DNA from: Legionellaceae bacterium
GTDB lineage: Bacteria; Pseudomonadota; Gammaproteobacteria; Legionellales; Legionellaceae
Length of the DNA: 64,000 bases
NCBI GenBank assembly: GCA_011087865.1
Contig: JAALKW010000002.1
Coordinates: 13,683-77,682, forward strand
Direction: 5' to 3'
Below the pieces are notes generated by a model. That model saw only the letters and a program-made list of their open reading frames with translations, had not been told where the DNA came from and did no database searches. The position numbers and the translations under genes were made by a program. The stretch's first letter is position 1. Each line of letters begins with the position of its first letter. This document shows positions 9,937 through 56,843 of the stretch, piece by piece.

Positions 9937-11454
9937 CTACTCCTTTGTTTGATGTGTTGGCATAGAAAACACGCCATCCTTTGCTTCTCCAACTTCAGGC
10001 CAACGTGCTGTCACTGTTTTAGCGCGCGTATAAAAATGCATACTTTCCGCACCATGCATCGCGGTATCTCCAAAAATAGAACGCTTCCAACCGCCAAAAG
10101 GATGCGTTGCAATGTGTACTGGAATGGGTATATTCACGCCAACCATGCCCACCTGCACTTGTTGGCTATATGCACGCGCATGATATCCTGATCCCGTAAA
10201 AATTGCTGTCCCATTGCCGTATGGATTACGGTTAACCAGCCGCACAGCCGGTTCAAAGGCTTGTACCCGTAACACCAATAAAACAGGCCCAAAAATTTCC
10301 TCTTGATAAACCGCCATCGATTCAGTCACATGATCAAAGAGTGATGGTCCTACAAAATAACCATTAGGGTAAGAGGCATGCTGAAAAGCACGTCCATCAA
10401 TCACTAAGTCTGCACCTGCCTCAACGCCACAGGTTACAGCATCTAGTACGCGCGCACGATGTGCCTCACTGATTAAAGGCCCCATATCAACAGACGCTGC
10501 ATCTCCCACATCAATCTGAATACCTTGTATTTTAGGTTTTAAGTGTCGAATTAACTCATCTGCAACCGTATCTCCGACAGCAACGACCACAGAAATGGCC
10601 ATACATCGCTCACCTGCCGAACCAAAAGCGGCTCCCATTAAAGCATTTGCAGTTTGCTCAATATCAGCGTCAGGCATAACCACTGCATGATTTTTAGCCC
10701 CCCCAAAAGTATGTGCTCGCTTCCCCTGTCGTGTTGCCTCAACATAAATCGACTTCGCAACAGGCGTTGAAGCAACGGCTGTAAAAGATGAAATATCTGG
10801 ATGCGCTAATAAATAATCAACTGTCGTTTTATCACCATGTAACACCTGAACAACACCGGGGGGTAACCCTGCCTCTTACAATAAATTTAATAAGTAATTC
10901 GCTGATAATGGCACTTGTTCAGACGGCTTTAAAATAAAAGCATTGCCCGCTGCAATCGCTGGAATCATCATCCATGTTGGCACCATAACCGGAAAATTAA
11001 ACGGCGATACACCCGCACAAACGCCTAGTGGTTCACGCGTGGTCCAGCAATCAATCGACGTTGAAACATTTGCAGAAAAAGTGCCTTGCAGTGCTTTCAA
11101 CGCGCCACAATGTAATTCAACCACCTCAATTGCACGTAAAATAGAGCCTGTTGCATCGGCCAATGTTTTACCCTGCTCTTGTGTGACAAGCGCTGCCAAT
11201 GTAGCCTGATTTTTTTCTAGCAAAGCACGAAATTTAAAAAGAACTTGTGCACGTTTAATCGGTGGCTTAGCTGACCATTGACGGAAGGCTTCTCTCGCCG
11301 TTTCAACAGCTTGCTGACAAATGATTCTATCTGCCACAGGCACTCTTGCAATGATTTCACCGGTCGCAGGATTAGTGACATCCAAAAAAGAACCGCCTTT
11401 AGGCGTCACGCGCTCCCCGCCAATCCTATGGGGTACAGTATCAATCATTATCAA
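9937..11454 (-). pseudogene. mmsA: Methylmalonate-semialdehyde dehydrogenase interrupted by one in-frame TAA (10876-10878)
   Basis: The two track ORFs (10876..11454 and 9937..10845) are in the same frame. The read-through sequence is [36 protein letters not shown]. The catalytic FGSAGERCMA motif is in the downstream part. Confidence 0.85.
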
Positions 11455-11463
11455 TCACTCCTG

Positions 11464-12204
11464 TTACAAAATATGATCTAATCCATAGGCAAGCTTACCC
11501 AATGACTGAACTTTTTGACAAGCCAAACGTAACCCAGGCATAAAAGAAATCCTATCCATTGTTTGATGTCTAATTGTTAAGGTTTCACCTGTTTGTCCAA
11601 AAATAACATCTTGCTCTGCCAGCGTCCCTGGAAGCCTTAATGAGTGAATGCGAACATCTTGATATAAAGCACCTAAAGCACCGGGTAATATTTCTTGTGC
11701 AGTTGATAAATGAGGGGATGCTTTCCGTGCATGCGCAATCAAATCAGCTGTTTTTATCGCTGTCCCTGAGGGTGCCTCTGCTTTCGCTGGATGATGCGCC
11801 TCTATAATTTCAACATCGGGTAAGTAATGCGCTGCTTCTGCGGCAAAACGCATCATTAATACAGCCGCAATTGAAAAATTAGGCACGATGAGTGCCCCCA
11901 GTTTCTTTTTTTCACACAATGCTGAGAGTGTTTTAATCTCGGGCTCAAGTAACCCGCTCGTGCCAATCACAGGACTCGCACCCTGCTCAATAATCGTTAA
12001 ACTATTTTGATAGGCACAATCCGCACGCGTTAAGTCAACAACAATATGCGCATTCATATCAATAATCGCTTGCGCTAAATCATCTGATTTCCCTAAGCCT
12101 GCAAGCAACTCAAACTCAGGTGCACTTTGCAACGTTTCACAGGCCAGGCGACCCATTTTACCAGCCGCACCGTTAACAATTACCCCTATTTTGGACACAC
12201 TCAC
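11464..12204 (-). CDS. dapB: 4-hydroxy-tetrahydrodipicolinate reductase
   Basis: 246 aa. Has GAAGKMGR and EAHHPAKAEAPSGTA motifs. The GTG start overlaps the upstream TGA stop (GTGA). Confidence 0.88.
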   Translation of the reverse strand: MSVSKIGVIVNGAAGKMGRLACETLQSAPEFELLAGLGKSDDLAQAIIDMNAHIVVDLTRADCAYQNSLTIIEQGASPVIGTSGLLEPEIKTLSALCEKKKLGALIVPNFSIAAVLMMRFAAEAAHYLPDVEIIEAHHPAKAEAPSGTAIKTADLIAHARKASPHLSTAQEILPGALGALYQDVRIHSLRLPGTLAEQDVIFGQTGETLTIRHQTMDRISFMPGLRLACQKVQSLGKLAYGLDHIL

Positions 12205-12422
12205 TCCGTTTTTTCTGATACCGATTCTGATTTAATTTTTGAGTTTGCATTAAAATAACTAATATTATCCCGATGACGAAACGCAATGATAGTGATAGGT
12301 AACCAACCAATAATTGTCACCTGAAGCGCCATTGCTCCAACAGCCAAAACAAATTTTTCTTCTAAAAGAAAAACACTCCATGGGAAAAAAAGTGCCAAAC
12401 ACGCAAATAACATCCGTTTCAT
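12201..12422 (-). CDS. Small membrane protein (2 TM), unknown function
   Basis: 73 aa, hydrophobic, translationally coupled to dapB. Confidence 0.45.
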   Translation of the reverse strand: MKRMLFACLALFFPWSVFLLEEKFVLAVGAMALQVTIIGWLPITIIAFRHRDNISYFNANSKIKSESVSEKTE

Positions 12423-12564
12423 TATCAGCTCCTCCGTTAAAATATCACCTAAATATCACCTTGTAATTATATACACCCAGCGTATACTTGCAAAACTTGA
12501 TTATTCTATATCAAACACGTTTGATTTAAACCCGGTTACAAACCATCGAAAGAGCTGAAACCTC

Positions 12565-13185
12565 ATGAGAAACCAACCTTTACACCCACGCACCGCCGTT
12601 GTAAACCAACAACAAAAAAACCATTCTAAAGTTGCACGACTCGATGCACTCACGTGGCTCACCCAACAATTTCCAAAAGCTTTTGATAATAGCGTACATA
12701 TTCAGCCACTCAAAATTGGTATTATTGATGATATCCTACTGCATGCTGAAGATGCTAAAAAGGCAGGGATATCTAAAAGCAAATTACGTGAAGCCGTGAT
12801 CTTATTCACGCGACGCATCGATTATCTCACCTGCCTTAAAATACGTGAAATGCGTGTTGATTTAAACGGCGAGCCGACAACAAAACCATCTATAGAAGAT
12901 GCTGAGTGTGCCGCATTAAAAATTAAACGTCGTATCGAAAAAAGTGCTAAAAATGCACGGTCAGCGGCCCCCAAAAAACCGTCATATACAAAAAAAACAG
13001 CTTTCGAACCACATAGACAGGAGCCTTTACCCGCCTTCAGCGCACAACAAGCTGTGTCGTCAAACACACGTCCTAAATCCACCACAATTAAACACAAAAC
13101 GGCGCGTGCTTTTGACCCCAATGCTGTTGCACGGCTCAAAGAAAAATTAGGCCTTGCTAAAAAACAAGAAACAAGCGGTGCGTAG
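12565..13185 (+). CDS. ProQ/FinO-domain RNA chaperone with a basic C-terminal tail
   Basis: LTWLTQQFPKAFD..PLKIGIIDDIL..SKSKLREAVILFTRRIDYL matches the ProQ/FinO fold signature. Confidence 0.75.
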   Translation: MRNQPLHPRTAVVNQQQKNHSKVARLDALTWLTQQFPKAFDNSVHIQPLKIGIIDDILLHAEDAKKAGISKSKLREAVILFTRRIDYLTCLKIREMRVDLNGEPTTKPSIEDAECAALKIKRRIEKSAKNARSAAPKKPSYTKKTAFEPHRQEPLPAFSAQQAVSSNTRPKSTTIKHKTARAFDPNAVARLKEKLGLAKKQETSGA

Positions 13186-13199
13186 CCAACAAAACGCGT

Positions 13200-14405
13200 T
13201 CAGTCGGCTGACACAACGTCTCGATTGTTAGCACGAGCTTCAAGCGCCGCTACTGCTGGAAGCGTTTGACCTTCTAAATATTCAAGAAACGCCCCGCCGC
13301 CTGTTGAAATATATGAAATTTGATCCGTCAAATCATACTGATCAATTGCAGCGAGTGTATCTCCGCCACCAGCGATACTAAAGGCATCACTCTTTGAAAT
13401 TGCAATCGCAAGTGCTCGCGTGCCATAAGAAAATTGCGGAAATTCAAACACGCCGACCGGCCCATTCCAAATAATTGTTCTGGCTGTATCCAGCACATCC
13501 ACATAACGCGTCACTGTTTCAGGGCCGATATCTAAAATCATGTCATCTTCAGCCATTTGCGCGAGCGTTTTATTAAACGCAGGACAGGTATCATTAAAAG
13601 ACTTGCTCACAACAACATCTGACGGCAGGGGAATTTCACAACCCGTTTTTGCTGCAAGCTCAAGAATTTCTTTGGCTTCATTTAATAACTCATGCTCACA
13701 CAAAGAAACACCCACTTCGTGCCCCTGCGCCTTTAAAAAAGTACTGGCAATACCACCACCAGGAATTAAAACATCAACACGCGTCACTAATTGCTTGAGT
13801 AAAGACAACTTAGATGAAACTTTACCCCCGCCAACAATAGCAACAATTGGCTTTTTAGGTGCTTTCAATACGTGCTGTAACGCTTCAAGCTCTCGCGTTA
13901 ATAGAGGGCCTGCAACAGCAACTGGCACATACTTTGCAACACCGCATGTTGACGCCTGCGCACGATGCGCTGTACCAAACGCATCCATCACAAAAACATC
14001 ACATAAAGCCGCTAATTGACGAGCAAGCTTCTCATCATTTGCTTTTTCACCATGATTAAATCGTACGTTTTCACACACGACGAGCTCGCCTGGCTCACAG
14101 TCAACCCCATCTAAATAATCTTTCACAAAACGAACCGGATATTTTAATCGTTCGGCTAAATAATCAGCAACCGGTGCCATTGAAAAACGTTTATCATAGA
14201 TGCCTTCTTCGGGGCGCCCTAAATGAGACAAAATAATTACAGCAGCACCTGCCTCAAGCGCTTGCTCAAGCGTCGGCAAACCTGATTGAAGCCGTTGGTC
14301 ACTATTAATAATGCCTTCTTTAATAGGTACATTAAAATCTTCACGAATTAATACGCGTTTACCACGCAGTTCTATATCGCTCATTTTGATCATATTCATG
14401 GTCAT
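13200..14405 (-). CDS. pgk: Phosphoglycerate kinase
   Basis: [23 protein letters not shown] aligns with the E. coli Pgk N-terminus, so the true start may be 14393. About 397-401 aa. Confidence 0.93.
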
Positions 14406-14408
14406 TCC

Positions 14409-15401
14409 TCAAAGATTCATCATATATAATGCTGTATCTAGCATACGATTAGAAAAACCCCATTCATTATCGTACCACGCAACTACTTTAACCAAAGACC
14501 CTAACACTTTCGTTTGTGTCACATCAAAAACAGCTGAAGCTGGATAATGATTAAAGTCACACGATACCAAAGGTTCTGCATTAATATGTAAAACGTGGCT
14601 CTCAGCATCCCGCATGATTGCATTCACTTCGTCAACCGTCGTTTGACGCTGACTTACAAACGTTAAGTCAATCACAGACACATTTTGCGTTGGAACACGC
14701 ATAGCGAATCCATCCAGTTTACCAGCGAGCTCCGGTAAAACCAAGCCAACAGCAATTGCTGCACCTGTTTTAGTCGGAATAATAGAATGTGCCGCGGCCC
14801 TTGCACGACGCACATCTTGGTGATGTCCATCTAGCAATAATTGAGCTTTGGTATATGCATGAATTGTATTTAATAGGCCTGATTCTATTCCAATCGCTTC
14901 ATGTAAAGGCTGAACCACCGGTGCCAAACAATTGGTGGTACAAGAAGCTGCCGACACAATCGTGTCCGTTGCGCGTAGGTTCTCATGATTCACACCATAT
15001 ACAACCGTTGCATCCATCTCCGTTCCAGGCGCTGAAATCAATACTTTTTTAGCCCCTGCTTCAAGATGTGCTGCAGCCGCCGCACGTGATGTAAAGTGCC
15101 CCGTACACTCAAATACTAAATCAATCTCTAAATCTTTCCATGGTAACTCAGCTGGCACACGTGAACCTGTGACTTGAATAACATGACCATCAATCACTAA
15201 ATGTCCGTCTGCCACCGTCACTTCATGCGGAAAACGACCATGCGTTGAATCATAACGTGTACAATGCGCGGTACTTTCAACCCCTGATGAATCATTAATA
15301 GCCACCACCTCGAATTCATCAAGACGCCCTGATTCAAAAATTGATCGTAATACACAACGCCCAATACGCCCATACCCACTAATTGCAACACGTTTTTTCA
15401 T
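14409..15401 (-). CDS. gap: Glyceraldehyde-3-phosphate dehydrogenase
   Basis: 330 aa. Has INGYGRIGR-like SGYGRIGR and the active-site [10 protein letters not shown]. Confidence 0.92.
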
Positions 15402-17398
15402 GACTCACATTTCTCCGAAAAAAAGATTTGAACGGCCTCTATCACACGCTCTACCGTCAACCCCAAGACTTCAAGTACATCATTGAGTGGTGCTGATAAC
15501 CCAAAAGCATCCAAACCAATCACTGTTCCCTCATGTCCTACAAACCGATACCAAGTGTCCGTGACTGCGGCTTCAATCGCAACACGTTTTAAAATTTTTC
15601 GAGGTAAAACCATTTCTTGATACGCTGCCGACTGCCTTAAAAACTGCTCCACGCAAGGCATAGACACCACCCGCGCAGAAATACCTTGCTCTAACAATCC
15701 CGCCGCTGCGTGAAGCGCTAATTGCACCTCTGATCCGGTCGCAATCAAAATAATATCTGGCGTCGCTTGCGCGTCTTTTAAAATATAACCACCACGCTTA
15801 ATTAAATCGGCTTCTGCCTTTTCATGCGGCAAAGCTGGCAAAGTTTGACGCGACAATAAAATACTCGTTGGCCCTGCCATATTTAATAGGGCCTGCTGCC
15901 AGGCAACCGCTGTTTCCATTAAATCAGCCGGTCGCCATACATCTAAACCGGGTATCATTCTAAGACTTGCCGTCTGCTCAATCGGCTGATGTGTGGGGCC
16001 ATCTTCTCCAAGACCCACTGAATCATGTGTATACACAAAAATAACGCGTATTTTCATCAACGACGCTAATCGAAGCGCTGGACGGGCATAATCAGAAAAC
16101 ACCAAGAATGTACCACCATAAGGAATCATCCCTCCATGCAAGGCCATCCCATTCATGATGGCCGACATCCCAAACTCACGTACACCATAGTGCAAATAAT
16201 TACCATCCCAGACTGTTTTAGACAATGCTTTGCTACCTGACCAGTCTGTATTATTTGAGCCGGTTAAATCTGCTGAACCGCCCAAAAGCTCAGGCAAATA
16301 TACCGCATAATGGTTTAAGCACTGTTGAGATGCTTTGCGTGTCGCAAGTGCTTTTTGTTCTATGCGACACTGTTCAATAAAGGCATCACTGATCTCACAA
16401 AAACTATCCGGCAAATCACCGTTTGAAACTCGTAATAAGGCATTATAATCTTCAGGATAATCCGTTGCATATGCATCTAATTGCTTTAACCAGCTATCTT
16501 CCAATAATACGCCTGCTTCTATTCCTGACCATGCTGCATACAAATCATCTGGAATCTAAAAAGGCGAATAGCCCCAATTGAGTCGTCGACGTAATTGCGC
16601 CATGTCTTCCGCGCCCAGCGGCGCTCCATGTGTCGCCTCACTGCCCGCCTGCTCCGAGCCATAACCAATCACTGTTTTACAAATAATTAAAGTGGGTTTA
16701 TTGGTTTCAGCATGTGCCATTTTAATAGCCGCTTCAATGGCTTGTTCATCATGGCCATCAACAGCCTCAATCACATGCCAGTCATAAGAGTGAAATCGCT
16801 CGGCGGTATCATCAGTAAACCAAGCGTCGATATGACCATCAATCGAAATACCATTTGCATCATAAAATACAATTAATCGCGAAAGCCCAAGCGTCCCGGC
16901 CAATGAACATGCCTCATGCGAAACACCCTCCATCAGGCAGCCATCTCCCACAAAAACATAGGTAAAATGATTGATTATGTCTGCATCTTGTTTATTGAAT
17001 CGTGCGGCCAACTGCTGCTCAGCCACGGCCATCCCGACAGCATTAGCAAGACCTTGCCCCAAGGGTCCTGTTGTGGTTTCAACGCCTGGAGTTTCAAGAC
17101 GCTCTGGATGACCCGGCGTTTTTGAATGTAGCTGTCTAAATTGCTTTAAATCTTCAATGCTTAAATCATATCCTGTGAGATGCAATAATGCATATAACAA
17201 CATTGACCCATGTCCATTAGACAGCACAAACCTATCTCGATTCAACCAGTCAGGGTTACTAGGGTTATGCTTTAAAAACTTAGTCCAAAGCACTGTCGCA
17301 ATATCAGCCATACCAAGGGGCATCCCAGGATGTCCTGATTGCGCGGCATTCACCGCATCCACACTCAGAAAACGAATAGCTGAAGCAAGTTTATCCAT
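15398..17398 (-). pseudogene. tkt: Transketolase interrupted by one in-frame TAG (16556-16558)
   Basis: Start at [29 protein letters not shown]. The junction reads [22 protein letters not shown], versus E. coli TktA YAPFEIPSEIYAQW. Both halves are otherwise fully conserved. Confidence 0.88.
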
Positions 17399-17480
17399 AA
17401 AAAACACCAAACATTCCACATAAAACAAAAGGGCCTTATTGTCGCTCAGAACCCAAAACACAGCAAGCGCTCATTAAAAC

Positions 17481-17541: not shown

Positions 17542-18756
17542 ATGGTACAGTTCGCGCACTATATTAAATACAGTCACTCAATGTCATTAATTTATAGACA
17601 ACTTGAAATACAACAGGTCATTTCTGAGGGCGCGCCTTTAGACAATGCACAGTTCAACCTCCTTGCTGAAAACGCCTGGCTTTGGCGCGTCCAATATCGC
17701 GCGTACTGCGCACATCTCATCGCACACCTCAGTACATCAACCACGAATACCCATGATGAAAAAACACGCCATGAAATCCAAGCCACTTTAAGGCTCGCAA
17801 AATTACTTGAAGCGCTTCATGAGCGCCTCAACGAAATGCCCATCAAAACCAAATTTAGTCAGGATAGCGTCATATTAGAAAATTTATTGAACCCAACATC
17901 AGACCATACACCTGAATCCGATGCCTCTAATTTCCCAGGCTCCGTTCAACAAGCCACCTTTCAGACAGATACCACAAGACTGTTGACTGGCCACACACGG
18001 CGCATTTGCCTTGGACTGCTCGCTTTTCCTAAAACATTTACGCATGACTTAACCTGGATCGAACAATTTTCAACCGCTCTCGGCCCAATATTAACCCTTG
18101 CTGGTTTTTTAATTTATCTCCCACGGACAATTGTCAATGGCTTTTTACTCCCGCTCCGACTGTCTGAAAAACAATCCATTCCACTCGTATCTCGACTTCA
18201 AGCACATGCTGAAATTGATGACCGTTTATTTAATTTAATCAACGATTTTCCGTCTGTCATCTCGGGCACCATTTCTGTGTTTATGCTAACCGCATCAACG
18301 GCATGGTTAGCCGCTTATATTACTGTGGCCGTAAAGTTATGCGAAGTTATTTTTTCTGCCCTAAAAAGTCATTATGATGTCTCAAAACTTGAAAATATGC
18401 GCGAACAATATAATAGCATGAGCATAACAAGCGAGGCAGACACGAATTATTTAGCACAGCTTGATGCGAGTATTGCGCATATTAGAGGGACGCGAAATAT
18501 AAATACCATCATGCATGCACTCTTATTACTCTGTCTTGCTGCGTTTATTCCTCCCGTGATGATGCTGCATCCTGCAATCCCTATCCTCGCCGCATGTTTT
18601 GCAATCAGCCTTGTTTGCTTACGCTTTGCTGGATTCCGTAATTTTTGGATAAATGCAGCACCACCACAAGATGATTTACAGTCTCTCAGTCTTTTTTCAT
18701 CATCAGAAACAAACAACCAAGAAGACCCCTTGACAACGCAGCAGACCCCTGTTTAA
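17542..18756 (+). CDS. Membrane protein with hydrophobic hairpins, unknown function; candidate Dot/Icm-associated protein or effector
   Basis: 404 aa (the start could be M14). Two long hydrophobic stretches and a polar C-terminus (SSSETNNQEDPLTTQQTPV). It ends 36 nt upstream of dotD on the same strand. Confidence 0.5.
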   Translation: MVQFAHYIKYSHSMSLIYRQLEIQQVISEGAPLDNAQFNLLAENAWLWRVQYRAYCAHLIAHLSTSTTNTHDEKTRHEIQATLRLAKLLEALHERLNEMPIKTKFSQDSVILENLLNPTSDHTPESDASNFPGSVQQATFQTDTTRLLTGHTRRICLGLLAFPKTFTHDLTWIEQFSTALGPILTLAGFLIYLPRTIVNGFLLPLRLSEKQSIPLVSRLQAHAEIDDRLFNLINDFPSVISGTISVFMLTASTAWLAAYITVAVKLCEVIFSALKSHYDVSKLENMREQYNSMSITSEADTNYLAQLDASIAHIRGTRNINTIMHALLLLCLAAFIPPVMMLHPAIPILAACFAISLVCLRFAGFRNFWINAAPPQDDLQSLSLFSSSETNNQEDPLTTQQTPV

Positions 18757-27879: not shown

Positions 27880-28818
27880 CTAATTATCTAATATCAAATG
27901 CAAGAGCTCAAGCATTGTATCAAAACAATTTGAATTTTCGGGATCAAATCGACAAGCATTGGGCCACGTTCTTAACCAAGTCAATTGACGTTTTGCAAGC
28001 TGACGTGTTGCCGCTAGTGCTTTCGCATGGAATAGCTTAAAATCATCAGCGCCTTGTTGATAATCAAGCGCTTGTCGATACCCAACACTTCGCATCGAGG
28101 GCATATCTGATGTCAGTTGAAAACGCGCTTGCAAGGCTTTCACTTCATCTAAAAATCCAAGCTCAAGCATCTGATCAAAGCGAATCGCTATGCGTTCATG
28201 TAACCAAGCCCGTCTTTCTGGAAATAAAATTAAATTAATGATTTGATAATCAGGAAAAAACTGACCGGATTGATGGCTAAAAGCCTCAGATAAAGGCTTA
28301 CCGGTTGCATAACATACCTCGAGTGCACGCTGAATACGCTGAGCGTCATTTGGGTGCAATTTTGCTGCTGTCGTTGCATCTAATATTTTTAGTTTGGCAT
28401 GTAGATGAGGCCAACCTTTTTGCCTCGCCTCCAGTAACAAGGCTTCTCGTAATACAGAATTAGCCGGCGGCAACGCAGACAATCCTTTTTGAAAAGCTCG
28501 AAAATACATCATACTACCGCCAACCAATAGCGGAATGTTCCCTCTCGCTAAAATCGCATCACATAACGCATGTGCATCATCACAAAAAGCAGCAACAGAG
28601 TAAGTTTCTGTCGGTTTTCGGATATTAATTAAATGATGCGGTGCTTCTCGAAGCAAATCTGCATCTGGTTTTGCTGTGCCAATATCCATGTCTTGATACA
28701 CCATAGCGGAGTCAACACTAATAATTTCACAAGAGAATATGTTTAAAAGTGCACAAGCCATTGCTGTTTTTCCAGATGCTGTTGGACCCATTAAACAAAT
28801 CACATTACGCACAATCAA
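27880..28818 (-). CDS. miaA: tRNA dimethylallyltransferase
   Basis: 312 aa. P-loop GPTASGKT. Conserved mutL-miaA order. Confidence 0.9.
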   Translation of the reverse strand: MIVRNVICLMGPTASGKTAMACALLNIFSCEIISVDSAMVYQDMDIGTAKPDADLLREAPHHLINIRKPTETYSVAAFCDDAHALCDAILARGNIPLLVGGSMMYFRAFQKGLSALPPANSVLREALLLEARQKGWPHLHAKLKILDATTAAKLHPNDAQRIQRALEVCYATGKPLSEAFSHQSGQFFPDYQIINLILFPERRAWLHERIAIRFDQMLELGFLDEVKALQARFQLTSDMPSMRSVGYRQALDYQQGADDFKLFHAKALAATRQLAKRQLTWLRTWPNACRFDPENSNCFDTMLELLHLILDN

Positions 28819-30436
28819 GCACCTTTTGACAGCTATTAATATCTAAACAAGCACTCAGTTTTTGATGATGACTTGTTTTGTCTAAATTTTTCCAATATGC
28901 AATGAGAGCCTGCTGCTCAATATCCGTCATCATCATCAAATTAATCTCTTCTGATGCAGCCAAAAGCATGGTCACTTGCTGGATGTTTTTTTCGGCCAGT
29001 GCGCAAAAAGCATGTAAAAACTGTTTCAAATCTAAAGCCGGCAAAGCACGCGGAATGGTACGCACTTGAACTGTATTATCTCCTAAAAAATTCAACACAA
29101 GCCCCAATTTTTTTAATAATTTCTGATGTGCCTTCAAATGCGCTTGTTCATCCACTGAGATTTCTATATTGACCGGAACCAAGAGCGGTCGTGCATCCCA
29201 AGGCTGAGTTAATTGATTTAATTCATCAAGACATAGGGCGTGATGTAAACGTTTGACATCCAGCAAATAAGTTTCGTTTTGATGCGTCAATATTCCAAAT
29301 TGTGAATTTAAGGCAATCAGTATTTTTTTTTGATTACTATCTATCGGATAAACTGGATGATTTGCTTGTACGTTTGCTTGCGTAGCAAATTCAGTAAACT
29401 GAGGATTTTCAATATCTTGTTCAAGCTTCATATGCGATGGCGAAGCTTGTGTCGCCAACATCTCCATAATAGCGAGTCGAATTAAATCATGCACAGCTCT
29501 TGCATCAGAAAAGCGCACTTCGTATTTACTGGGATGCACATTAATATCAACTGCGTCTTGCGGCATATTTAAAAATAACACACATGCAGGATAACGCCCC
29601 TCCGGTAAAACATCAGCATAAGCTTGTCTTAGCGCATGTAAAATAAGCTTATCTCGTACCATCCGCTGATTGATATAGAACCATAGTTTATCTTGCTGAC
29701 TCCGTGCATAAGCCGGTCCACTAACCCAGCCATGTAGACGCATATTGCCCCGTGTAATATCAACAACAACCGCTTCATCTACAAACGCTTTCCCCAAAAG
29801 CTGTGTGAGGCGCATGCGTTGTGTTCTATCTGAAGGAGCAGCAGGCAGCCGTAAATTGGATTTTTGATCATGGCTCACCGTAAATGCAATTTCAGGACGA
29901 CTAAATGCGAGACGTTTTATCACACGCTCAATCGCTTGATATTCAAATGCAGGTGTTCTTAAAAATTTTTTTCGAACAGGAGCATTAAAAAATAAATCAC
30001 GTACTTCAATCGTTGTCCCTTGATTTCTCGCGCATGGATGCATTCGAATACCATGTTCATCACACTCCAAACCCATTGCATCTATCGCATTTTTTGCACG
30101 CGATTGGATAAAAACACGCGCAACCGAGCAGATACTGGCAAGAGCTTCACCACGAAACCCCATGCTGTCGATAACATATAAATCATCCAATGCTTTTAGT
30201 TTACTGGTCGCATGTGAAGCGATAGCAAGTGGTAAATCTTCCGCAATAATACCCACGCCATCATCGCTAATTTTAATTTGATTCAGGCCACCAAAACCAA
30301 TGTCAATATCAATATGCTTTGCCCCTGCATCCAGGGCATTTTCAAGTAGTTCTTTTACAACCGATGCAGGACGTTCAATCACCTCACCCGCTGCAATTTG
30401 ATTTGCCACATGCGGTGAAAGCGTTTTTATTCTCAC
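28805..30436 (-). CDS. mutL: DNA mismatch repair protein MutL
   Basis: N-terminus IKTLSPHVANQIAAGEVIERPASVVKELLENALDAGA, plus GFRGEAL. Confidence 0.92.
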   Translation of the reverse strand: MRIKTLSPHVANQIAAGEVIERPASVVKELLENALDAGAKHIDIDIGFGGLNQIKISDDGVGIIAEDLPLAIASHATSKLKALDDLYVIDSMGFRGEALASICSVARVFIQSRAKNAIDAMGLECDEHGIRMHPCARNQGTTIEVRDLFFNAPVRKKFLRTPAFEYQAIERVIKRLAFSRPEIAFTVSHDQKSNLRLPAAPSDRTQRMRLTQLLGKAFVDEAVVVDITRGNMRLHGWVSGPAYARSQQDKLWFYINQRMVRDKLILHALRQAYADVLPEGRYPACVLFLNMPQDAVDINVHPSKYEVRFSDARAVHDLIRLAIMEMLATQASPSHMKLEQDIENPQFTEFATQANVQANHPVYPIDSNQKKILIALNSQFGILTHQNETYLLDVKRLHHALCLDELNQLTQPWDARPLLVPVNIEISVDEQAHLKAHQKLLKKLGLVLNFLGDNTVQVRTIPRALPALDLKQFLHAFCALAEKNIQQVTMLLAASEEINLMMMTDIEQQALIAYWKNLDKTSHHQKLSACLDINSCQKVLDCA

Positions 30437-35739: not shown

Positions 35740-37203
35740 ATGAAATACAGCGACTTACGTGATTTTATTGCACACTTAGAATCACGTCAGTTGCTCACTC
35801 GTATTGATTATCCTGTATCACCCTATCTTGAAATGACGGCAATCAGCGATAAAGTATTACGCAGTGATGGCCCTGCTTTATTATTTACTCACCCTAAAAA
35901 TCATGATATTCCCGTTCTGACAAACTTGTTCGGCACTGTCGAACGTGTTGCGCTTGCGATGGGGCAAGATGATATTAAAGCCCTTCGTGAAATAGGTGAG
36001 CTGCTTGCCGCACTGAAAGAACCCGAGCCCCCCAAAAGCTTTAAGAATGCTTTCCAACAAATACCTTTATTAAAGCACGCGCTCAACATGGCACCTAAAA
36101 CCACTGAACGCGCTGTTTGCCAAACACATGTCATAGAAAAAGAGCAGATAGACCTAACCAAACTCCCCATTCAAACCTGTTGGCCTGATGACGTCGCGCC
36201 GCTCATTACCTGGGGACTCGTCACAACCAAAGGACCCCATCAAACACGAGAAAATATTGGCATTTATCGTCAACAAGTACTCAATAAAAACCAACTCATT
36301 ATGCGCTGGCTTGCACATCGCGGAGGCGCGCTCGACTATTTAGCCTTTCAAAAAGAATATCCGGGTGAGCGTTTTCCAATAGCCGTCACGCTCGGCACTG
36401 ATCCTGCCACCTTACTCGCAGCAGTAACCCCTGTTCCAGATAGCCTGTCTGAGTATGCCTTTGCAGGCCTCCTACGCGGCAAGCGCACACATTTGACACG
36501 CTGCCTTACGCATGATTTGCATGTCCCTGCCAATGCCGAATTTGTACTGGAAGGCTACCTTGAACCAGACCTTGAGGCACCAGAAGGGCCTTTTGGTGAT
36601 CATACCGGTTATTATAACGAAGTTGAGTCATTTCCCGTTTTTACCTTTGACCGAACCACCCATCGCCCCGACCCCATTTATCATAGCACCTATACCGGCA
36701 GGCCCCCTGATGAGCCCGCCATATTAGGTCTTGCACTCAACGAAGTATTTATTCCCATTTTACAGAAGCAATTTCCTGAAATCACTGATTTCTATTTGCC
36801 GCCTGAAGGCTGTTCTTATCGCTTAGCTGTGGTGACGATCAAAAAACAATATCCAGGACATGCCAAGCGCGTCATGATGGCTGTATGGTCTTTTCTTAAG
36901 CAGTTTATGTATACAAAATTTGTGATTGTCTGTGATGATGATATTAATGCGCGCAACTGGCAGGATGTCATTTGGGCAATGACCACCCGAATGGACCCTG
37001 CACGCGATACCGTGATGATAGACAACACCCCCATGGATTATCTTGACTTTGCCTCCCCTGTATCAGGATTAGGTTCAAAAATAGGCCTTGATGCAACCAA
37101 TAAATGGCCTAGTGAAACAACACGCCCCTGGGGAAAGCCGATGACCATGGACCCTGATATATTAGATAAAATTAATGCTTATTGGCCTAAACTTGGATTA
37201 TAA
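35740..37203 (+). CDS. ubiD: 4-hydroxy-3-polyprenylbenzoate decarboxylase
   Basis: 487 aa. [34 protein letters not shown]. Confidence 0.92.
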
Positions 37204-37205: not shown

Positions 37206-37922
37206 ATGTCAATCGCAATCACACCGGCTGAAGTCACCCAAGTGACACCACTAACAAATCGCCTACTGCGGGTCACCTTAACCCCTGAGCAATATATTCA
37301 TTATGATGCTGGACAATATTTAGAAATTATCTCACCGAACCCAGATGAAAAACTATACTACTCCATTGCAAATGCGCCACTTGGCCCTAAAACATATGAA
37401 TTACATATTCGTCATCAACCCAATCATAGCGAACAACAGCATGTGCTCGATGCAATCACAAAACAAGGTCGTGTCATTTTAAATTTACCTTTTGGTACAT
37501 GTACTTTACAAGCACTCACCCCTGAAAAGCCTATTTTATTGATTGCAGGCGGTACAGGCTTCGCACCCATTAAAGCCATGATTGAACAGTTACTGACTGA
37601 TGGCCATACACAACCGTTCGAACTCTATTGGAGTGCACGAACACAAGAAGATTTATATCTCGATGAAAAAGTACTCGCCTGGGAAAAGCATGTCCCGCAC
37701 TTTAAATACACCCCTCATTTAACAGACCAAGACAAAACCCCTCTGATTAAACGTATCACGCAACAACATCAAAAAAACCTCAAAAATTATCAAGTGGTTC
37801 TGGCAGGCCCGTTTGATTTTGTTTACGCACTACGTGATGCACTGCTTGATGAAGACATACCAAAACAGCAATTATTTTCTGATGCCTTTGCCTTAGAGCA
37901 ACCTTCTGGAGAAACGTCATGA
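37206..37922 (+). CDS. fre: FNR-type NAD(P)H-flavin oxidoreductase (Fre-like)
   Basis: 238 aa. YSIAN flavin motif and GGTGFAPIKAM NAD(P) motif. ubiD-fre adjacency as in E. coli. Confidence 0.65.
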   Translation: MSIAITPAEVTQVTPLTNRLLRVTLTPEQYIHYDAGQYLEIISPNPDEKLYYSIANAPLGPKTYELHIRHQPNHSEQQHVLDAITKQGRVILNLPFGTCTLQALTPEKPILLIAGGTGFAPIKAMIEQLLTDGHTQPFELYWSARTQEDLYLDEKVLAWEKHVPHFKYTPHLTDQDKTPLIKRITQQHQKNLKNYQVVLAGPFDFVYALRDALLDEDIPKQQLFSDAFALEQPSGETS

Positions 37923-38110
37923 CAACTTTTTATCAACTACTGGCCTTAATAGGTGCCGGATTAATTGCCTGGATTATTTATCGCACAATCAAAAACAAAC
38001 CTGAACAATTTAGCCGAGAAAACTTAAACAAAAGCTTTTCGAGCATGGGCATTCTTGCCATAATATTAATTATATTTATTGCATTTTTAGTACTAATAAC
38101 ACGACAATAA
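37919..38110 (+). CDS. Small membrane protein (2 TM)
   Basis: 63 aa, hydrophobic. Its start overlaps the fre stop. Confidence 0.4.
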   Translation: MTTFYQLLALIGAGLIAWIIYRTIKNKPEQFSRENLNKSFSSMGILAIILIIFIAFLVLITRQ

Positions 38111-38145: not shown

Positions 38146-39072
38146 ATGATTGAAAACAAATCTCACTGGACAATGTCTTTTTTGATGTCAGATGCGTTCA
38201 TGGCTTTTTTAAATGCCATTCCAGAAGCAGCCATTTTAAGCACGCCATCAGGCAATGTGATATTAACCAATACCACCGCACAAGCACTTTTTCAGTATAC
38301 CAATCAAGAGTTTAAAAACTGTGTAATTGAAGATTTAGTGCCCTCAACAATTAAACATGTACACCCTAACTTACGTGACTCTTTTTTTGAACACCCAACA
38401 TCAAGATACTTAGAGGCACGCGAATTAACACTGGCTGCCCGTAAAAGAAATGGCAGCGAATTTCCTATGGAATCTGCATTATTTGCCGTATTTACTGAAG
38501 AAGGTCCTATTGCGATTAATTTAATTCGCGATATCACACTTCAAAAACAAGCTGAGCAAAAAATAACTTAATATGCTTTTGTGGATACTTTAACAAACCT
38601 CCCCAATCATCGTTATTTTGACGACCATATCAAACGCGTGGCATCGAAAGCACAACGAGATAATGCAAACATTGGCATTCTGTATATTGATTTTGATAAG
38701 TTCAAGCCTATCAATGATCAATATGGACATGCTGCAGGTGATCTGGTTTTACATGAAATAAGTACTCGTCTATCTAAACTTTTACGAGCAGAGGACTTAT
38801 TAGCCCGGGTTGGCGGGGATGAGTTTATCTTAACTATCCATCCCTTACGCAATCACGAAGATTTAGATGATATTGCTAAGCGGATATTAATAGCATGTCA
38901 CGAACCCATTATAACAAAAGATAACACCCTACAAATATCTGCGAGCATCGGTATCGCGACCAATCAGTCGCAACATTTTGATGAACAAGAATTAATTCAA
39001 GCCGCTGATAAAGCCATGTATGCGGCCAAAAAACAAGGCGGAAACTGCTTCATCTATGCAGTAAATCCATAA
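38146..39072 (+). pseudogene. PAS-GGDEF diguanylate cyclase interrupted by one in-frame TAA (38569-38571)
   Basis: The PAS ORF ends at ..LQKQAEQKIT*. The same frame continues with YAFVDTLTNLPNHRYF..RVGGDEF (A-site), with RAED (RxxD I-site) 5 aa upstream. Confidence 0.8.
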
Positions 39073-40064: not shown

Positions 40065-41351
40065 TCAGCACCTTGCCATCAAATCATCCTGTTGTTCCTT
40101 TTTTAAGATTTCGGCTTCAATGTTTAGCAAAGCCCTCGACTGATCAGAACAAGAGAAACCAACACCAACATCATCTGTTGAAACAATAGAGGCTTTAAAA
40201 AAATAACTAGAATGTGTATTTAATGCATCATATAATCTATTATCTGGCTTTCTCTTGCGGATTGCATTGATTATTTTTTCATCCGTCAACTCACCTAGTG
40301 CTTGAACTTCATGATGAACAGCTTCAACTTTAGCTTGATAAGCAGTCCTCATTAAAAATTCAGATAAAAGATTCATTGAAGCCACTTTGTTACTTAAGCG
40401 TGTTTGCTCTTTTAACAAAGCCATCACAATCGGGGTTTGAATAACTTGCCAGGTTAAAGCTTCAGCATGCTTTTTAGAAGCCTCATTGGTTAACGTACCA
40501 TCGCCATTTTGAGGTTTTATTTTCGACAACACTTCATCACGCTCTCTTTCCATAGAGAAGACGTATTGAGTTGCATTAAAATTTTCTTCTAATCGTTCAA
40601 TATGTGTTGTTTTCGGAATAACAGAAACGCCTCGTGACATATTCCATGCAAGTGCAATTTGGGCAGGCGTCGCGTCAATACTTCAAGCAACTTCTCGTAA
40701 AATTTCAGAATCAAAAATAAATGATGCAACATCATAACCCAAAGGCGAATATGCAATAACTTGGATATCTTGTGCCTGACAATAACGAATTATTGAATCA
40801 TTAGAGCACCAAAAATTAGACTCGATTTGATTGCTAAATGGTTTTGGCAAGTTGTATTTTTCACAGATAGAAATTAATCTTATCAAATGCCCTTCAAACG
40901 CATTCGATACACCAAAAGTCTTAACCAGCGCTTCTGGCAGATCTGTGATTTTCTCCCAGATTGATTTTACCTGTGCCTCACACCTAAAAACAGGCTCCAC
41001 ATGATGCAACATAAAAGTATCTAAATAACCCACATTTAATATATTGATATAAGATTCGACCACTTCCAAAGTATAATGATCTGACTTCATAGTGACCCAT
41101 AAATCAGAGCGATTAATGCCAAGGCCTCCGCTATCTATCGGTAACATTGCCTGACTAAGCGCTTGGCCAACAGCGGGAAGATTGCCATAATTTTCAGCTA
41201 AATCAATGTGCCTATAACCTATACGCAGTGCGTTATATACTGTTTTTTCAACAAGCGCCATGCGCTTATCAAAATCCTCTATTCGGTCTAATTCGATGCC
41301 TATAAAAGTACCTAAGCCCATCATCGGTATTTTTTTTAAACAACTAGGCAT
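40065..41351 (-). pseudogene. Aldo/keto reductase with a ~150-aa C-terminal extension, interrupted by one in-frame TGA (40683-40685)
   Basis: Start at MPSCLKKIPMMGLGTF (GGGGAG RBS). The junction reads SEILREVA*SIDATPAQIALAWNMSRGVSVIPKTTHIERLEEN, the canonical AKR C-terminal block, in the same frame. Confidence 0.75.
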
Positions 41352-49081: not shown

Positions 49082-49345
49082 ATGAACAGTAAAGTGTTTG
49101 CGCAACGCTTTAATCGGGAGTTGTCGATGTTGGGCCTCCCAGATGACTTGAACGAAAAAACAAAAGCAGTCTCAAAAGTATTTGGGGTGACACGTCACCT
49201 TGCAAATGCAATGATTTTTGGACAAAATTTACCTTCTGACAGTCAGTTGGATAACATTGCCAAAATTCTCGAAGTCTGCCCTGAGTGGCTAGGAGGCAGC
49301 ACGAATCGCAGGAAAGCCTATCCTGAACGTGAGACAATGTCTTAG
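49082..49345 (+). CDS. Small XRE/Cro-like HTH protein
   Basis: 87 aa. The SKVFGVTRHLANAMIFGQNLP region resembles an HTH. Confidence 0.45.
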   Translation: MNSKVFAQRFNRELSMLGLPDDLNEKTKAVSKVFGVTRHLANAMIFGQNLPSDSQLDNIAKILEVCPEWLGGSTNRRKAYPERETMS

Positions 49346-49356
49346 CATCTTGTCGC

Positions 49357-50223: not shown

Positions 50224-50287
50224 ACAAGCCCTTTAATATTGCGTATTAGCGCAATAAATACTAGCTACGAAGACTTGAGGACAAGGC

Positions 50288-52887: not shown

Positions 52888-52888
52888 C

Positions 52889-53728
52889 TCAATCCCCCTG
52901 AAATTGACGGCCCTGACTCATCAGCTCTAGCTGCTGAAGCAGTGCTTTTGTTTCTAACAGCAAAATATCTGTGTCTGGACGCCCTAATACAAAATATGTC
53001 TGTATATTTTGATATATTTTTAAAGTGGTTTGATTAAAAACCGAGAGCTCATTAAACACTGTAGCTTTCAAATGATAGTCATGCTTTGCTGTACTTAAAA
53101 AAGCATGTAACGCTAAAACGTGCGTATTAAATGCTGCACTTAATTTTAAATAATCACTACGACGTACAGGTGCGCTTAAAACCACATCTAGCAACGCCTG
53201 TAACTCTGAAACTAACTTTTGCTGTAAATTAAAATAAAATTGATGTGTCAAATTATTTTTTTTAAAAATAAAATATTCAAAAAAAACACAAATACTTAAC
53301 GCAATCACCGTTGATTTCGCATAATCAAAGAAAAATTGATCTATCGCGTATAAATCACTTTGATAATAATCACTGCCTAATGCCGTTAGCGTCACAGTAA
53401 AAATGGTCGGTGAGACATAATATTTACTCAAGGTAAAATAAGCCATAAAGACCATAGCAGGTACGACCATTAAAATAAGATCGTCGTCAATGCGAATGAA
53501 AAAAAAGAGAATGTAAGATAAAAACAAACCAAACATCGCGCCCCAAAAGCGATGAATCGTTCGATGAACACTCGTACCCGCATCAAAACCTGCATAAATC
53601 ATCATGACGGCAAAGCCAATCCAACCCGCATGTGAAAAGTTTAATATTTTTTGTAATAATAGCGCCGAAATAAAAACCGCACTAATTTGTAATGCACGCG
53701 TTGTCCGGTAATCTATTGCCTCATGCAT
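52889..53728 (-). CDS. FUSC/AaeB-like efflux membrane protein, C-terminal-half homolog
   Basis: About 279 aa, polytopic N-part plus helical C-part. Its ATG overlaps the upstream ORF end by 16 nt in another frame. Confidence 0.6.
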   Translation of the reverse strand: MHEAIDYRTTRALQISAVFISALLLQKILNFSHAGWIGFAVMMIYAGFDAGTSVHRTIHRFWGAMFGLFLSYILFFFIRIDDDLILMVVPAMVFMAYFTLSKYYVSPTIFTVTLTALGSDYYQSDLYAIDQFFFDYAKSTVIALSICVFFEYFIFKKNNLTHQFYFNLQQKLVSELQALLDVVLSAPVRRSDYLKLSAAFNTHVLALHAFLSTAKHDYHLKATVFNELSVFNQTTLKIYQNIQTYFVLGRPDTDILLLETKALLQQLELMSQGRQFQGD

Positions 53729-54663
53729 ATCAGATTCCAAGATTGTATTAATTGTATGAAGTTTTTATCTTGTGTGAAAATCAGCTCACAGGTGCTTTCT
53801 TGCTCTATTGCTTGTATCAATAATTTTGTATTTTCTATCAATAAAGCAAGCGATTCTTTATCTAGCTTGGCCAATACGCTCTGACTCACCTCACTTTGGT
53901 TTTTTAGCCCATGCATGAGTAAATTAATTTTTAAAATAGAATAACAAGGTAAATAACGGGGTAACATATTTGAAAAATCAAGCATTTGCTTAATATCTTC
54001 CTCAAATAATGAAACAGTCACCACCTGATTTTGATGAATCAGTAACAAACGATTTAACCATGCTTGAACGGCAAGACGAAAAGCCCGCAACCATAAACGA
54101 TAATAATAACTCAGGGGAAATAAAAGTAATGCCGCAATAATAACCAGCATCGCCATTACCGTTGTAAATACATTCTCTAGCAGCATTTTAAAATTAGCAT
54201 TCAGGGTCGGATACAATAATGAGTAGGCTGCAAGACTTAAAATAATCGGCACCAAAGGCAACATGATATCTACGCGATGCAATGCAATCAGGTATAAACT
54301 CACGGTTGCCACAAACATCGCTACCAAAAAAAATAATGGATAAGGCCTTAACATATTAAATAACATGACCATGAGGCATGCGCCCATCATGGTATATATA
54401 AAAGCTTTGTACTTATCTTGTAAGCGCGGCATCATGACTTCGGCGGTCATCGCAGTTATCGGTAAATAAAAAAAATAAAAATACGGATTGGGTATATGAA
54501 ATAACAAATTACAGCCGGCCAATACAAAAAAAACATAGACGACTTTGATGCCATTTAGCCGATGTATCCCATATGGATCATACGCTTCGGCGGTGTGAAT
54601 GAGCTTTGATATAAACATAAGCACTGGCACCTGGCTGCAAAGGATGGTTGGGATCAGGATCAA
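53713..54663 (-). CDS. FUSC/AaeB-like efflux membrane protein, N-terminal-half homolog
   Basis: Up to 316 aa, polytopic. The start is uncertain (54663 or 54618) and overlaps the MFP gene end. Confidence 0.55.
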   Translation of the reverse strand: MILIPTILCSQVPVLMFISKLIHTAEAYDPYGIHRLNGIKVVYVFFVLAGCNLLFHIPNPYFYFFYLPITAMTAEVMMPRLQDKYKAFIYTMMGACLMVMLFNMLRPYPLFFLVAMFVATVSLYLIALHRVDIMLPLVPIILSLAAYSLLYPTLNANFKMLLENVFTTVMAMLVIIAALLLFPLSYYYRLWLRAFRLAVQAWLNRLLLIHQNQVVTVSLFEEDIKQMLDFSNMLPRYLPCYSILKINLLMHGLKNQSEVSQSVLAKLDKESLALLIENTKLLIQAIEQESTCELIFTQDKNFIQLIQSWNLICMRQ

Positions 54664-55597
54664 GAATTTGAATTTGTAAAGGCAAACGCTGTGGAATTAA
54701 TAACCATTCATTCTCATTGGCTACTTTTTGCTGCTGTGTTCTAATCACCGTATTTTGTCTATCTGCAGCCCAAATTGTATTGACAACGCGACCATGAAAT
54801 ATTTTTGTAAAATAATACATGCGAAGCAAAATAATCGCCTCATCATCAGGACGAATACGCCGCAAGTCCGTCTCATTAAAATTCGCTTGTACCCACCAGT
54901 TTGATGTATCAATAAAAGAAAATAACGGTTTATGAATTTTAACCGGTGTGCCTTTTGAGATATACATATTATCAACAGTGCCATCGGTTGGTGCACGAAC
55001 TATCGTTAAATTCAAATTAACAGCCGCATTATCCATCTCTGCTTTTAAAGCGCTTACTTTTTTTTGCTGTTCTAGCACCTGCCTATCTTCTATTTTAATT
55101 TGTTTCGCTAACGCATCTTTTTTCTTTTCCATGGCTTGTAAATTATATTTTAATACACGTATTTCAAGTACCGGCACGGCTTGACTGACACTTGGATTAT
55201 TTTTTAATCTGAATTTAAGCTTTGCTTTTTCATAATCGAATACTGCAGCATGAAATAAATCGCGTGTTTTATTGGTTTTTTGCTCAATTACTTTCACCTG
55301 CTCAATCGCTTGTTCATATCGTGCTTTTGCAGTTAAAAGCGCTAAACGATAAGGTTCTTGATAGACTTTAACCAAAGGATCATCCTGCTTAACTGGCTGA
55401 CCGTTTTTTACATAAATATCTGTAATATAACCTGAAACATCTGCTGCAATCGGTGTGACATTGGTTGCAACGAAAGCATTATTTGTAAACGGTATCATGT
55501 ACGAAAAAATATGATAAATAATCAATAGCAACGCAATACCAATCACGACCACGGGCAAGTTAATCTCGTTTTTTGATACTTTGAGTATTTTTAGCAT
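54578..55597 (-). CDS. HlyD/AaeA-type membrane fusion protein
   Basis: 339 aa. N-terminal TM, coiled-coil segment, barrel-sandwich motifs (VSGYITDIYVKNGQPVKQDDPL). Confidence 0.8.
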   Translation of the reverse strand: MLKILKVSKNEINLPVVVIGIALLLIIYHIFSYMIPFTNNAFVATNVTPIAADVSGYITDIYVKNGQPVKQDDPLVKVYQEPYRLALLTAKARYEQAIEQVKVIEQKTNKTRDLFHAAVFDYEKAKLKFRLKNNPSVSQAVPVLEIRVLKYNLQAMEKKKDALAKQIKIEDRQVLEQQKKVSALKAEMDNAAVNLNLTIVRAPTDGTVDNMYISKGTPVKIHKPLFSFIDTSNWWVQANFNETDLRRIRPDDEAIILLRMYYFTKIFHGRVVNTIWAADRQNTVIRTQQQKVANENEWLLIPQRLPLQIQILDPDPNHPLQPGASAYVYIKAHSHRRSV

Positions 55598-55722
55598 CCA
55601 AGCTTATTTATATTTTAGATATTACTATCTAAATTTATAACAAATCAAACAGCGAGAAGCCAGTATAAACGCATTTTATTCTGTCGAAATTACACCTCCG
55701 TTACGATATACTAACGACAAAT

Positions 55723-55758
55723 TTCTAAATCTAATTCTAAATCTAATCCTAAATTCAA
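55723..55758 (+). repeat. Tandem 12-mer repeat (ttctaaatctaa x2 plus degenerate tcctaaattcaa)
   Basis: Read directly from the sequence. It ends 11 nt upstream of the lpxD ATG. Confidence 0.85.
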
Positions 55759-55769
55759 GGAATTTTTCT

Positions 55770-56843
55770 ATGCATGCCTCGCTACATGAAATCGCAGCCA
55801 TCGTAAAGGGTACAGTCATTGGTGACAACACCGTGACAATTGATGCTTTATCTCCTATTGATGAAATCAAAGCAGGATCACTTATTTTTGCTGATGGCAC
55901 AGACCATTTAAAACAAGCCGAACTCTCAGATGCCGCGGCTGTTCTTGTTGCAAAGCACGTGTCTGAACTCAATAAGCCTTTGATTCAAGTTGAAAATCCA
56001 TTCAAAGCATTTATTGTATTACTCAAGCATTTCTACCCAACCCCAAAACCCGCACCAGGCATTCATCCAACAGCCATCATTGCACCTGATGCCATCATAG
56101 GTGAACATGTCTCGATTGGCCCTTATGTCATCGTAGAGGCTGAAAGTCATATCGGTGATCATTGCGTTATTAAAAGCCATGTCCATATCGGTAATTATGT
56201 CAAAATAGCGGCGCATTCAACCATTCATTCGCACGTTACAATTTATGACTACTCTGACATTGGCGAACAGGTCACGATTCATGCCTCATCTGTTATTGGA
56301 TCTGATGGCTTTGGATACACGGCTGAAAATGGTCAACATATTAAAATTCCTCATGTTGGACGTGTTGTCATTGAAAATGATGTTGAAATTGGGGCCAGTA
56401 CGATTATTGACCGTGCAACGATTGGTGAAACCATTATTGGAAAAGGCACAAAAATAGATAACCTCGTGCAAGTTGCACACTCGGTTAAATTGGGCCAACA
56501 TAATATTTTATGCGCCTTCACAGGCGTTGCAGGCAGCACCCAAAGTGGTAACCATGTTATTTTTGCAGCCGGCGTTGGCGTGACTGACCATGTTCGCACC
56601 GATGATTAAGTGCTTTTAGGTGACCGTGCTGGTGTCCCCCCTAAAAAACATCTGAAAAAAGGCCTGATTTACTTAGGCACCCCAGCTCGTCCGCGTGAAA
56701 AAGCCATTGAGCACGAAATGTCGACCACACGTATTCCGCTCATGCGCAAGCAACTCAAAAAACTCAGTGAACAAGTTAATTTACTCAAAGAAAAACATTC
56801 CGAACTTAAACCTGCTCCTGAAGCCATTGATACAGAGAGATAA
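55770..56843 (+). pseudogene. lpxD: UDP-3-O-acylglucosamine N-acyltransferase interrupted by one in-frame TAA (56607-56609)
   Basis: Hexapeptide-repeat protein. The junction reads [31 protein letters not shown], with the second track ORF starting on the very next codon in the same frame. Confidence 0.85.

Follow-up and report, generated by a model that had tools for sequence, protein, structure and literature searches.

In-frame stop codons in conserved genes of a Legionellaceae assembly: four probable consensus base errors and one polymorphic nonsense allele

Nonsense pseudogenes are a product of reductive evolution in host-restricted bacteria such as the Coxiella-like endosymbionts and Mycobacterium leprae. 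We analyzed a 64,000-nucleotide (nt) stretch of the Legionellaceae bacterium assembly GCA_011087865.1 (contig JAALKW010000002.1, positions 13,683 to 77,682 of the forward strand; hereafter the window), for which a sequence-only reading had reported five conserved genes, each broken by a single in-frame stop codon with conserved sequence resuming immediately after it. Translation across the junctions confirmed exactly one in-frame stop per gene in an mmsA-like aldehyde dehydrogenase gene, in the transketolase gene tkt, in a PAS-GGDEF diguanylate cyclase gene, in an aldo/keto reductase gene and in an lpxD-like acyltransferase gene, with Pfam domains or in-frame conserved sequence continuing across four of the stops (Table 1). 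All three stop codons are represented, as had been reported (TAA three times, TAG and TGA once each), and all five stops are preceded by T. Five stops among ~60 genes is far above the expectation for a clean genome. Comparison with sibling assemblies revealed that four of the stops, those in mmsA, tkt, the reductase and lpxD, are private to the window, whereas the PAS-GGDEF stop is a reproducible polymorphism. We propose that the four private stops are consensus base errors of this assembly, to which we give a probability of about 0.8.

Four to five sibling assemblies were recovered from the same uncultured estuarine Legionellaceae-like population, at 99.0-99.9% identity to the window. The metagenome-assembled genome (MAG) GCA_040265055.1 (contig JBDQHC010000001.1; 99.0% DNA identity to the window) was reached via the tkt protein, and the others were located by exact look-up of small proteins neighboring the genes: JGI 3300044676 (plus 3300044674 and 3300044724), the Logan assemblies of SRR10987117 (L086) and SRR10987116 (L098), and SRR26991416 with related runs. 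Jointly these assemblies give at least twofold coverage of every position in the window. The JGI samples are water-column metagenomes from South San Francisco Bay obtained by NovaSeq sequencing (PMC11334935).

At the four private stops the siblings carry GAA (mmsA), GAG (tkt), CGA (reductase) and GAA (lpxD), encoding Glu, Glu, Arg and Glu, respectively. Over all five stops the sibling comparison gives four GAR>TAR changes and one CGA>TGA change, in agreement with the ancestral codons that had been guessed from the window alone. The mmsA gene is intact with 503 amino acids (aa) in GCA_040265055.1, JGI 3300044676 and SRR10987116, the SRR10987117 contig ending at window position 10833, 45 nt from the stop (the nearest next private site is 10843). 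The tkt gene is uninterrupted with 666 aa in GCA_040265055.1, JGI 3300044676, SRR10987117 and SRR26991416, and the reductase (428-443 aa) and lpxD (357 aa) are intact in GCA_040265055.1, JGI 3300044676, SRR10987117 and SRR10987116. Outside the private sites, the stop-bearing genes are the same as the intact sibling genes and show no accompanying decay in the form of a frameshift or deletion. All four genes are almost certainly intact in the organism itself, and the biological oddity implied by the apparent loss of tkt and lpxD is not supported.

A search with the read-through Tkt sequence returned a 666-aa protein (P0001), encoded on the GCA_040265055.1 contig, that is the same as the window protein except for Glu at the stop position and one Val/Ala site, and an 88% relative (P0002) likewise has Glu at the tkt stop site. 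The closest named Tkt homologues are from MAGs labeled Legionellaceae or Legionella sp. (~82% identity), and those of cultured Legionella species share 67-69% identity. A scan of species-representative genomes with Gap brought up no identical genome; its nearest match belongs to a different species (L001; 85% Gap identity, 76.6% nt identity), which is syntenic with the window, has intact mmsA and tkt genes and carries Asn and Val, respectively, at the positions of the two stops. Exact-protein look-ups found no match for Gap, the GcvP subunit or 3-hydroxyisobutyrate dehydrogenase, each of which has one window-private amino-acid change (at 14845, 46295 and 9374, respectively). A joined GGDEF, aldo/keto reductase and LpxD query in the homologue search returned distant GGDEF proteins only, without close relatives. 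Scans of metagenome contigs yielded no match for the lpxD patch pattern (with N at variable sites) or for the tkt site, and are uninformative, as the JGI sibling fits the lpxD pattern and the scanned collection is thus without this species.

The four stops belong to a larger load of private changes. Alignment of the window to the SRR10987117 contigs revealed 52 mismatches in 56,164 aligned bases and 0 indels, which bears out the earlier impression that indel-type disruption is absent. When polarized with the other assemblies, 52 of the 52 differences were derived on the window side and 0 on the SRR10987117 side. Over the whole window we counted 55 private substitutions, 11 of them in mmsA alone, and at each site the alternative base is shared by two to five other assemblies. 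The corresponding private counts in the siblings, over ~47-56 kb, are 0 in SRR10987117, 4 in SRR10987116 and 2 in JGI 3300044676.

Of the private changes, 33 are nonsynonymous, 17 are synonymous, 4 are nonsense and 1 is intergenic; they are spread over codon positions 1, 2 and 3 as 16:16:22, and have a transition to transversion ratio of 15:40, where uniform random change would give 1:2. The assemblies also differ by 249 natural polymorphisms, which, in contrast, include 71 nonsynonymous and 128 synonymous changes, with codon positions 45:23:133 and a transition to transversion ratio of 141:108 (private versus natural, Fisher test: p = 4e-5 for synonymous versus nonsynonymous and p = 9e-5 for transitions versus transversions). 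The 53 private sites counted at that stage fall into all six substitution classes (T>G 15, C>A 12, T>C 8, C>T 6, T>A 6 and C>G 6), a spectrum close to uniform random base replacement. At private sites L001 carries the sibling base in 14 of 20 cases and the window base in 1 of 20; this 70% match is about the genome-wide identity of 76.6%, and the private changes thus fall irrespective of constraint. Natural polymorphisms instead occupy fast-evolving positions, at which L001 has the majority allele in only 49 of 125 cases (p = 0.014).

Such a load accounts for the stops. Random placement of 54 coding substitutions with the observed spectrum on the ancestral coding sequence gave a mean of 2.5 stops with P(>=4) = 0.24, so that four private stops are unsurprising, ~4-5% of random coding substitutions yielding a stop codon. 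Nor does the G>T bias of the stops need a mutator, because GAA and GAG, the Glu codons, belong to the most common codons that a single step turns into a stop.

The private sites are also clustered. Forty of the 53 sites then counted have a neighbor within 50 nt, compared with a mean of 4.4 and a maximum of 15 in 5,000 shuffled trials, and most lie in patches of less than 70 nt that preserve length, mix substitution types and include adjacent-base swaps (Table 1). The reductase and lpxD stops fall within such patches. In the mmsA patch that lacks a stop, L001 has the sibling base at 5 of the 7 positions and the window base at 1. Sequence resembling a donor for any patch was not found elsewhere in the window. 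A test for Illumina phasing, in which the derived base equals a neighboring base, gave 29 of 53 sites against 22 expected (P = 0.04), a weak signal on which we do not rely.

Table 1. Genes with in-frame stops, the stop codons and the main clusters of private substitutions in the window. GCA, GCA_040265055.1; JGI76, JGI 3300044676; S17, SRR10987117; S16, SRR10987116.
Feature	Position in window	Strand	Details
mmsA-like aldehyde dehydrogenase gene	9937..11448	-	Pfam Aldedh, residues 21-479, across the stop
mmsA TAA	10876-10878	-	Window 10878 is A; + strand C in GCA, JGI76 and S16
mmsA patch without stop	10231..10270	-	7 substitutions in 40 nt; amino-acid changes include P>R, G>R, A>P and D>A
Transketolase gene (tkt)	15398..17398	-	Pfam Transketolase_N (3-330, across the stop); Transket_pyr and C-terminal domain contiguous
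tkt TAG	16556-16558	-	Isolated private change; window 16558 is A, C in four other assemblies
T>G trio in a gene of unknown function	18252..18285	+	3 changes in 34 nt; T in five other assemblies
Patch at zf-CHCC / glycosyltransferase-9 gene junction	27604..27668	-	8 substitutions in 65 nt; adjacent-base swaps
Patch in UbiD-family decarboxylase gene	36646..36672	+	6 substitutions in 27 nt
PAS-GGDEF diguanylate cyclase gene	38146..39072	+	Pfam PAS_9, residues 27-131; GGDEF, residues 144-300
PAS-GGDEF TAA (GAA>TAA)	38569-38571	+	In the PAS-GGDEF linker
Aldo/keto reductase gene	40065..41351	-	Pfam Aldo_ket_red, residues 49-282, across the stop
Aldo/keto reductase TGA	40683-40685	-	Siblings CGA (Arg); within private patch
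Reductase patch including TGA	40683..40702	-	3 substitutions in 18 nt: 40685, 40700 and 40702
lpxD-like acyltransferase gene	55770..56843	+	Pfam LpxD and Hexapep; hexapeptide body and C-terminal tail in frame past the stop
lpxD TAA	56607-56609	+	Siblings GAA (Glu); within private patch
lpxD patch including TAA	56584..56624	+	7 substitutions in 41 nt; four siblings mutually identical here

The private alleles thus occur in one assembly only, at sites where four or five other assemblies are mutually concordant; they bear no footprint of selection or of the natural mutational spectrum, and they form clusters shorter than a read without change in length. This pattern is consistent with a window consensus that would contain ~1 wrong base per kb. 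Parts of the contig may rest on very few error-bearing short reads, for example low-quality read tails at low coverage, which would introduce substitutions only, regardless of codon position or residue conservation and in many cases in length-preserving patches of 20-65 nt. Under such a mechanism, 54 coding errors would be expected to create 2-3 stops, and four are seen. Among the three causes put forward in the sequence-only reading, consensus base errors are accordingly favored for the four private stops over both a mutator and readthrough or suppression, with the PAS-GGDEF stop set apart as a real polymorphism; the overall pattern is probably not biological, the sole exception being that one ordinary polymorphic pseudogene.

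Several points weigh against consensus error. It is inferred from alleles compared at the consensus level, not observed directly, and the 52:0 asymmetry would also fit a single real lineage set against population consensus sequences. The tkt stop is isolated and lies outside any patch, and ~1e-3 would be a high error rate for an assembly of short reads. Contigs from SRR10987116 and SRR10987117 in Logan possibly come from the same or a sister sample, making them independent assemblies of DNA that is not necessarily independent. Lastly, the nonsynonymous count of 33 is about 2 standard deviations lower than the random expectation of 40.0 +/- 3.2, a shortfall which leaves room for a minority of the private sites being real variants.

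The alternative that survives best is that the private substitutions are real, having arisen in a recently derived subclone by unselected mutation (hypermutation, clustered error-prone repair or a severe bottleneck), and that the four genes are very young pseudogenes. Every difference from SRR10987117 lies on the window branch, as a derived lineage would show; in four of the five stops a Glu codon was changed by G>T, recalling damage by 8-oxoguanine (8-oxoG); the GGDEF nonsense allele is demonstrably real; and the lpxD copy lies outside the canonical lipid A cluster and is perhaps a dispensable paralogue. The spectrum, however, is broad and near uniform, unlike that of any known mutator class, and with six classes present and none dominant the substitution-biased mutator suggested earlier finds no support; mutL (28805-30436), moreover, is intact in the window, and mutY, mutM, mutS and mutT are located beyond it. 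Patches that mix several substitution types, preserve length and contain adjacent-base swaps fit no known mutagenic process, and neither conserved sites nor the first two codon positions are depleted of changes. Real mutation accumulation would also give some indels, yet there are 0 among 55 events, and by extrapolation ~7% of genes, central metabolism included, would have been knocked out. Because of this absence of a selective or mutational signature, the heterogeneous patches, the lack of indels and the implied gene knockout, we consider a real lineage unlikely. A special form of it, in which all 55 changes stem from untargeted clustered hypermutation ("mutation showers" leaving multi-substitution patches of 20-65 nt) in a subclone that survives nonsense mutations in tkt and lpxD, perhaps because it depends on a host or suppresses stops, appears highly improbable. 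A methylation motif or other shared sequence context, such as that of a TC-context deaminase, was also considered and rejected: although each of the five stops is preceded by T, three of the four private ones are G>T, which does not fit such a deaminase, and the wider private set has no common class.

It is similarly improbable that the patches are short chimeric insertions, whether from a paralogue, from a divergent co-occurring relative through mis-recruited reads, or by template switching at nearby repeats. The changes are grouped in short tracts, and relatives at 77-88% identity do exist in public data; imported natural alleles, however, would be mainly synonymous and free of stops, L001 has only 1 of 20 private alleles, and at the tkt site P0002 encodes Glu. 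On the basis of the L001 allele comparison and the donor search in the window, an origin in a divergent relative or an ectopic template was rejected. Least plausible is that readthrough, a suppressor tRNA or recoding lets the cell tolerate the stops and still make full-length proteins: conserved sequence does continue in frame past each stop, but the conspecific assemblies have sense codons at all four sites and L001 has Asn and Val, leaving no conserved recoding position, the three different stop codons are all normal terminators here (35 TAA, 18 TGA and 11 TAG over 64 open reading frames (ORFs)), the sole tRNA within the window is tRNA-Asn(GTT), and the TGA derives from CGA and not from a selenocysteine or Cys position. 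Reassignment of the genetic code was likewise rejected on terminator usage, the tRNA content of the window and the sense codons of the siblings.

The PAS-GGDEF stop behaves differently from the other four. Position 38569 is T in the window, SRR10987117 and SRR10987116 and G in GCA_040265055.1 and JGI 3300044676; the gene is intact with 308 aa in the 2018-19 siblings and split into 141 + 163 aa in the window, SRR10987116 and SRR10987117. Because the same stop is reproduced in SRR10987116 and SRR10987117, it is a real polymorphic nonsense allele (G>T), which is carried by the population of these two runs and absent from the later-sampled population. The truncation falls after the PAS domain, and the next in-frame start, a GTG three codons downstream of the stop, has no evident ribosome-binding site as read from the sequence; given so weak a start, production of the cyclase domain is unlikely. 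GGDEF/EAL proteins are typically numerous in Legionellales, and loss or truncation of this one is therefore ordinary strain-level variation in a redundant signaling gene.

Two of the other stop-bearing genes have features of their own. The reductase gene includes a C-terminal extension of ~150 aa (40065-40640, - strand) that has no Pfam match and is kept in every sibling assembly. The lpxD copy (55770-59580 region) is flanked by an RND/FUSC/OEP efflux cluster on one side and by polA on the other, outside the usual bamA-skp-lpxD-fabZ-lpxA context, and may be a second paralogue, as in Legionella, that is possibly dispensable.

Within the efflux region, two FUSC genes (52889-53740 and 53713-54663, - strand) overlap in different frames, and their overlap at 53713-53740 had been singled out as the one ambiguous disruption. 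Frameshift pseudogenization was ruled out here, as the same 301 + 279 aa split is found in all siblings and the upstream partner has stand-alone homologues of ~300 aa across Legionellaceae; the pair is a conserved two-gene arrangement. The annotation "phage minor tail protein" given to some homologues of the upstream partner looks to be mistaken. The Dot/Icm locus, by contrast with the stop-bearing genes, had been described as apparently intact, and dotA, dotB, dotC, dotD and icmW are indeed intact here. DotA (21431-24304, - strand) is shorter in GCA_040265055.1 and JGI 3300044676 (940 aa) than in the window, SRR10987116 and SRR10987117 (955-957 aa), and close to the 3' end of dotA lies a dense natural variable patch (21542-21563), with 11 differences in 22 nt from GCA_040265055.1, that is common to the window and SRR10987117.

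Further variation was observed elsewhere in the window. Upstream of a 73-aa gene near proQ, at intergenic positions ~12430-12451, the window has one extra 11-nt unit AAATATCACCT relative to GCA_040265055.1, and at ~17485, in the upstream region of tkt, the count of the 10-nt unit AAAAATATCT is lower by one; since both states are common to the window and SRR10987117, these differences reflect natural variation in repeat length within promoter regions. A YhcG/DUF1016-family gene (2710-3789, - strand) has a natural stop polymorphism close to its 3' end, at position 2715, with TAA in GCA_040265055.1 and GAA in the window and the SRR runs (358 versus 359 aa). The SRR10987116 contig lacks one T at window position 37905, which fuses an NAD_binding oxidoreductase gene with the next 63-aa ORF into a 265-aa product, whereas the other assemblies, including the window, keep the two genes (37206-37922 and 37919-38110, + strand) separate; this 1-nt indel is private to the run and may be real or artefactual. 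Because GC skew is negative in all 2-kb bins (-0.04 to -0.25) and AT skew is mainly positive, the + strand is probably the lagging-strand template throughout the window, in which no skew switch occurs.

The biological import of the five stops is small, given that four of the genes are most likely intact and the fifth, a redundant GGDEF gene, has a polymorphic nonsense allele of an ordinary kind. The implications for quality control are larger. By extrapolation, ~1 substitution error per kb would produce dozens of false pseudogenes genome-wide, or ~60-70 spurious stops per Mb, and such errors would also inflate strain-level divergence and the ratio of nonsynonymous to synonymous substitution rates (dN/dS). 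If the genome is used as a species representative, the errors would spread into pseudogene counts and into inferences of "genome reduction" for a Dot/Icm-bearing lineage. The approach taken here offers a recipe that works without reads: polarizing assembly-private variants against sibling assemblies and testing them for signatures of selection allows false and real pseudogenes to be told apart.

Compared with known systems, the in-frame stops within conserved domains recall programmed readthrough, selenocysteine and pyrrolysine recoding and suppressor tRNAs, from which they differ in that their positions are not conserved, three stop codons are involved and used as terminators, and the window encodes no suppressor tRNA. 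The coding-strand G>T change at four of the five stops resembles the G:C>T:A spectrum that 8-oxoG leaves in MutY/MutM-deficient bacteria, but C>A/G>T accounts for only 12 of 53 private changes, and all six classes are present. The likeness to the pseudogenes of reductive evolution lies in a Dot/Icm-bearing organism of Legionellales type with stops in otherwise conserved genes, and the GGDEF allele fits a young pseudogene or polymorphism; conversely, conspecifics at 99.0-99.9% identity are free of four of the five stops, frameshifts and deletions are lacking, and the private changes have no evolutionary signature. Reproduction of the lesion in independent data, which marks a genuine pseudogene, is seen for the GGDEF gene only and not for mmsA, tkt, the aldo/keto reductase or lpxD. 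Although ~1 error per kb is high for a typical low-coverage short-read MAG, and the likeness is judged from consensus sequences alone, the private changes resemble the consensus errors of such assemblies: they are substitutions only, confined to one assembly, blind to codon position and conservation, with a transition to transversion ratio of ~1:2 and clusters of sub-read length, and they create spurious stops at the rate expected from random hits.

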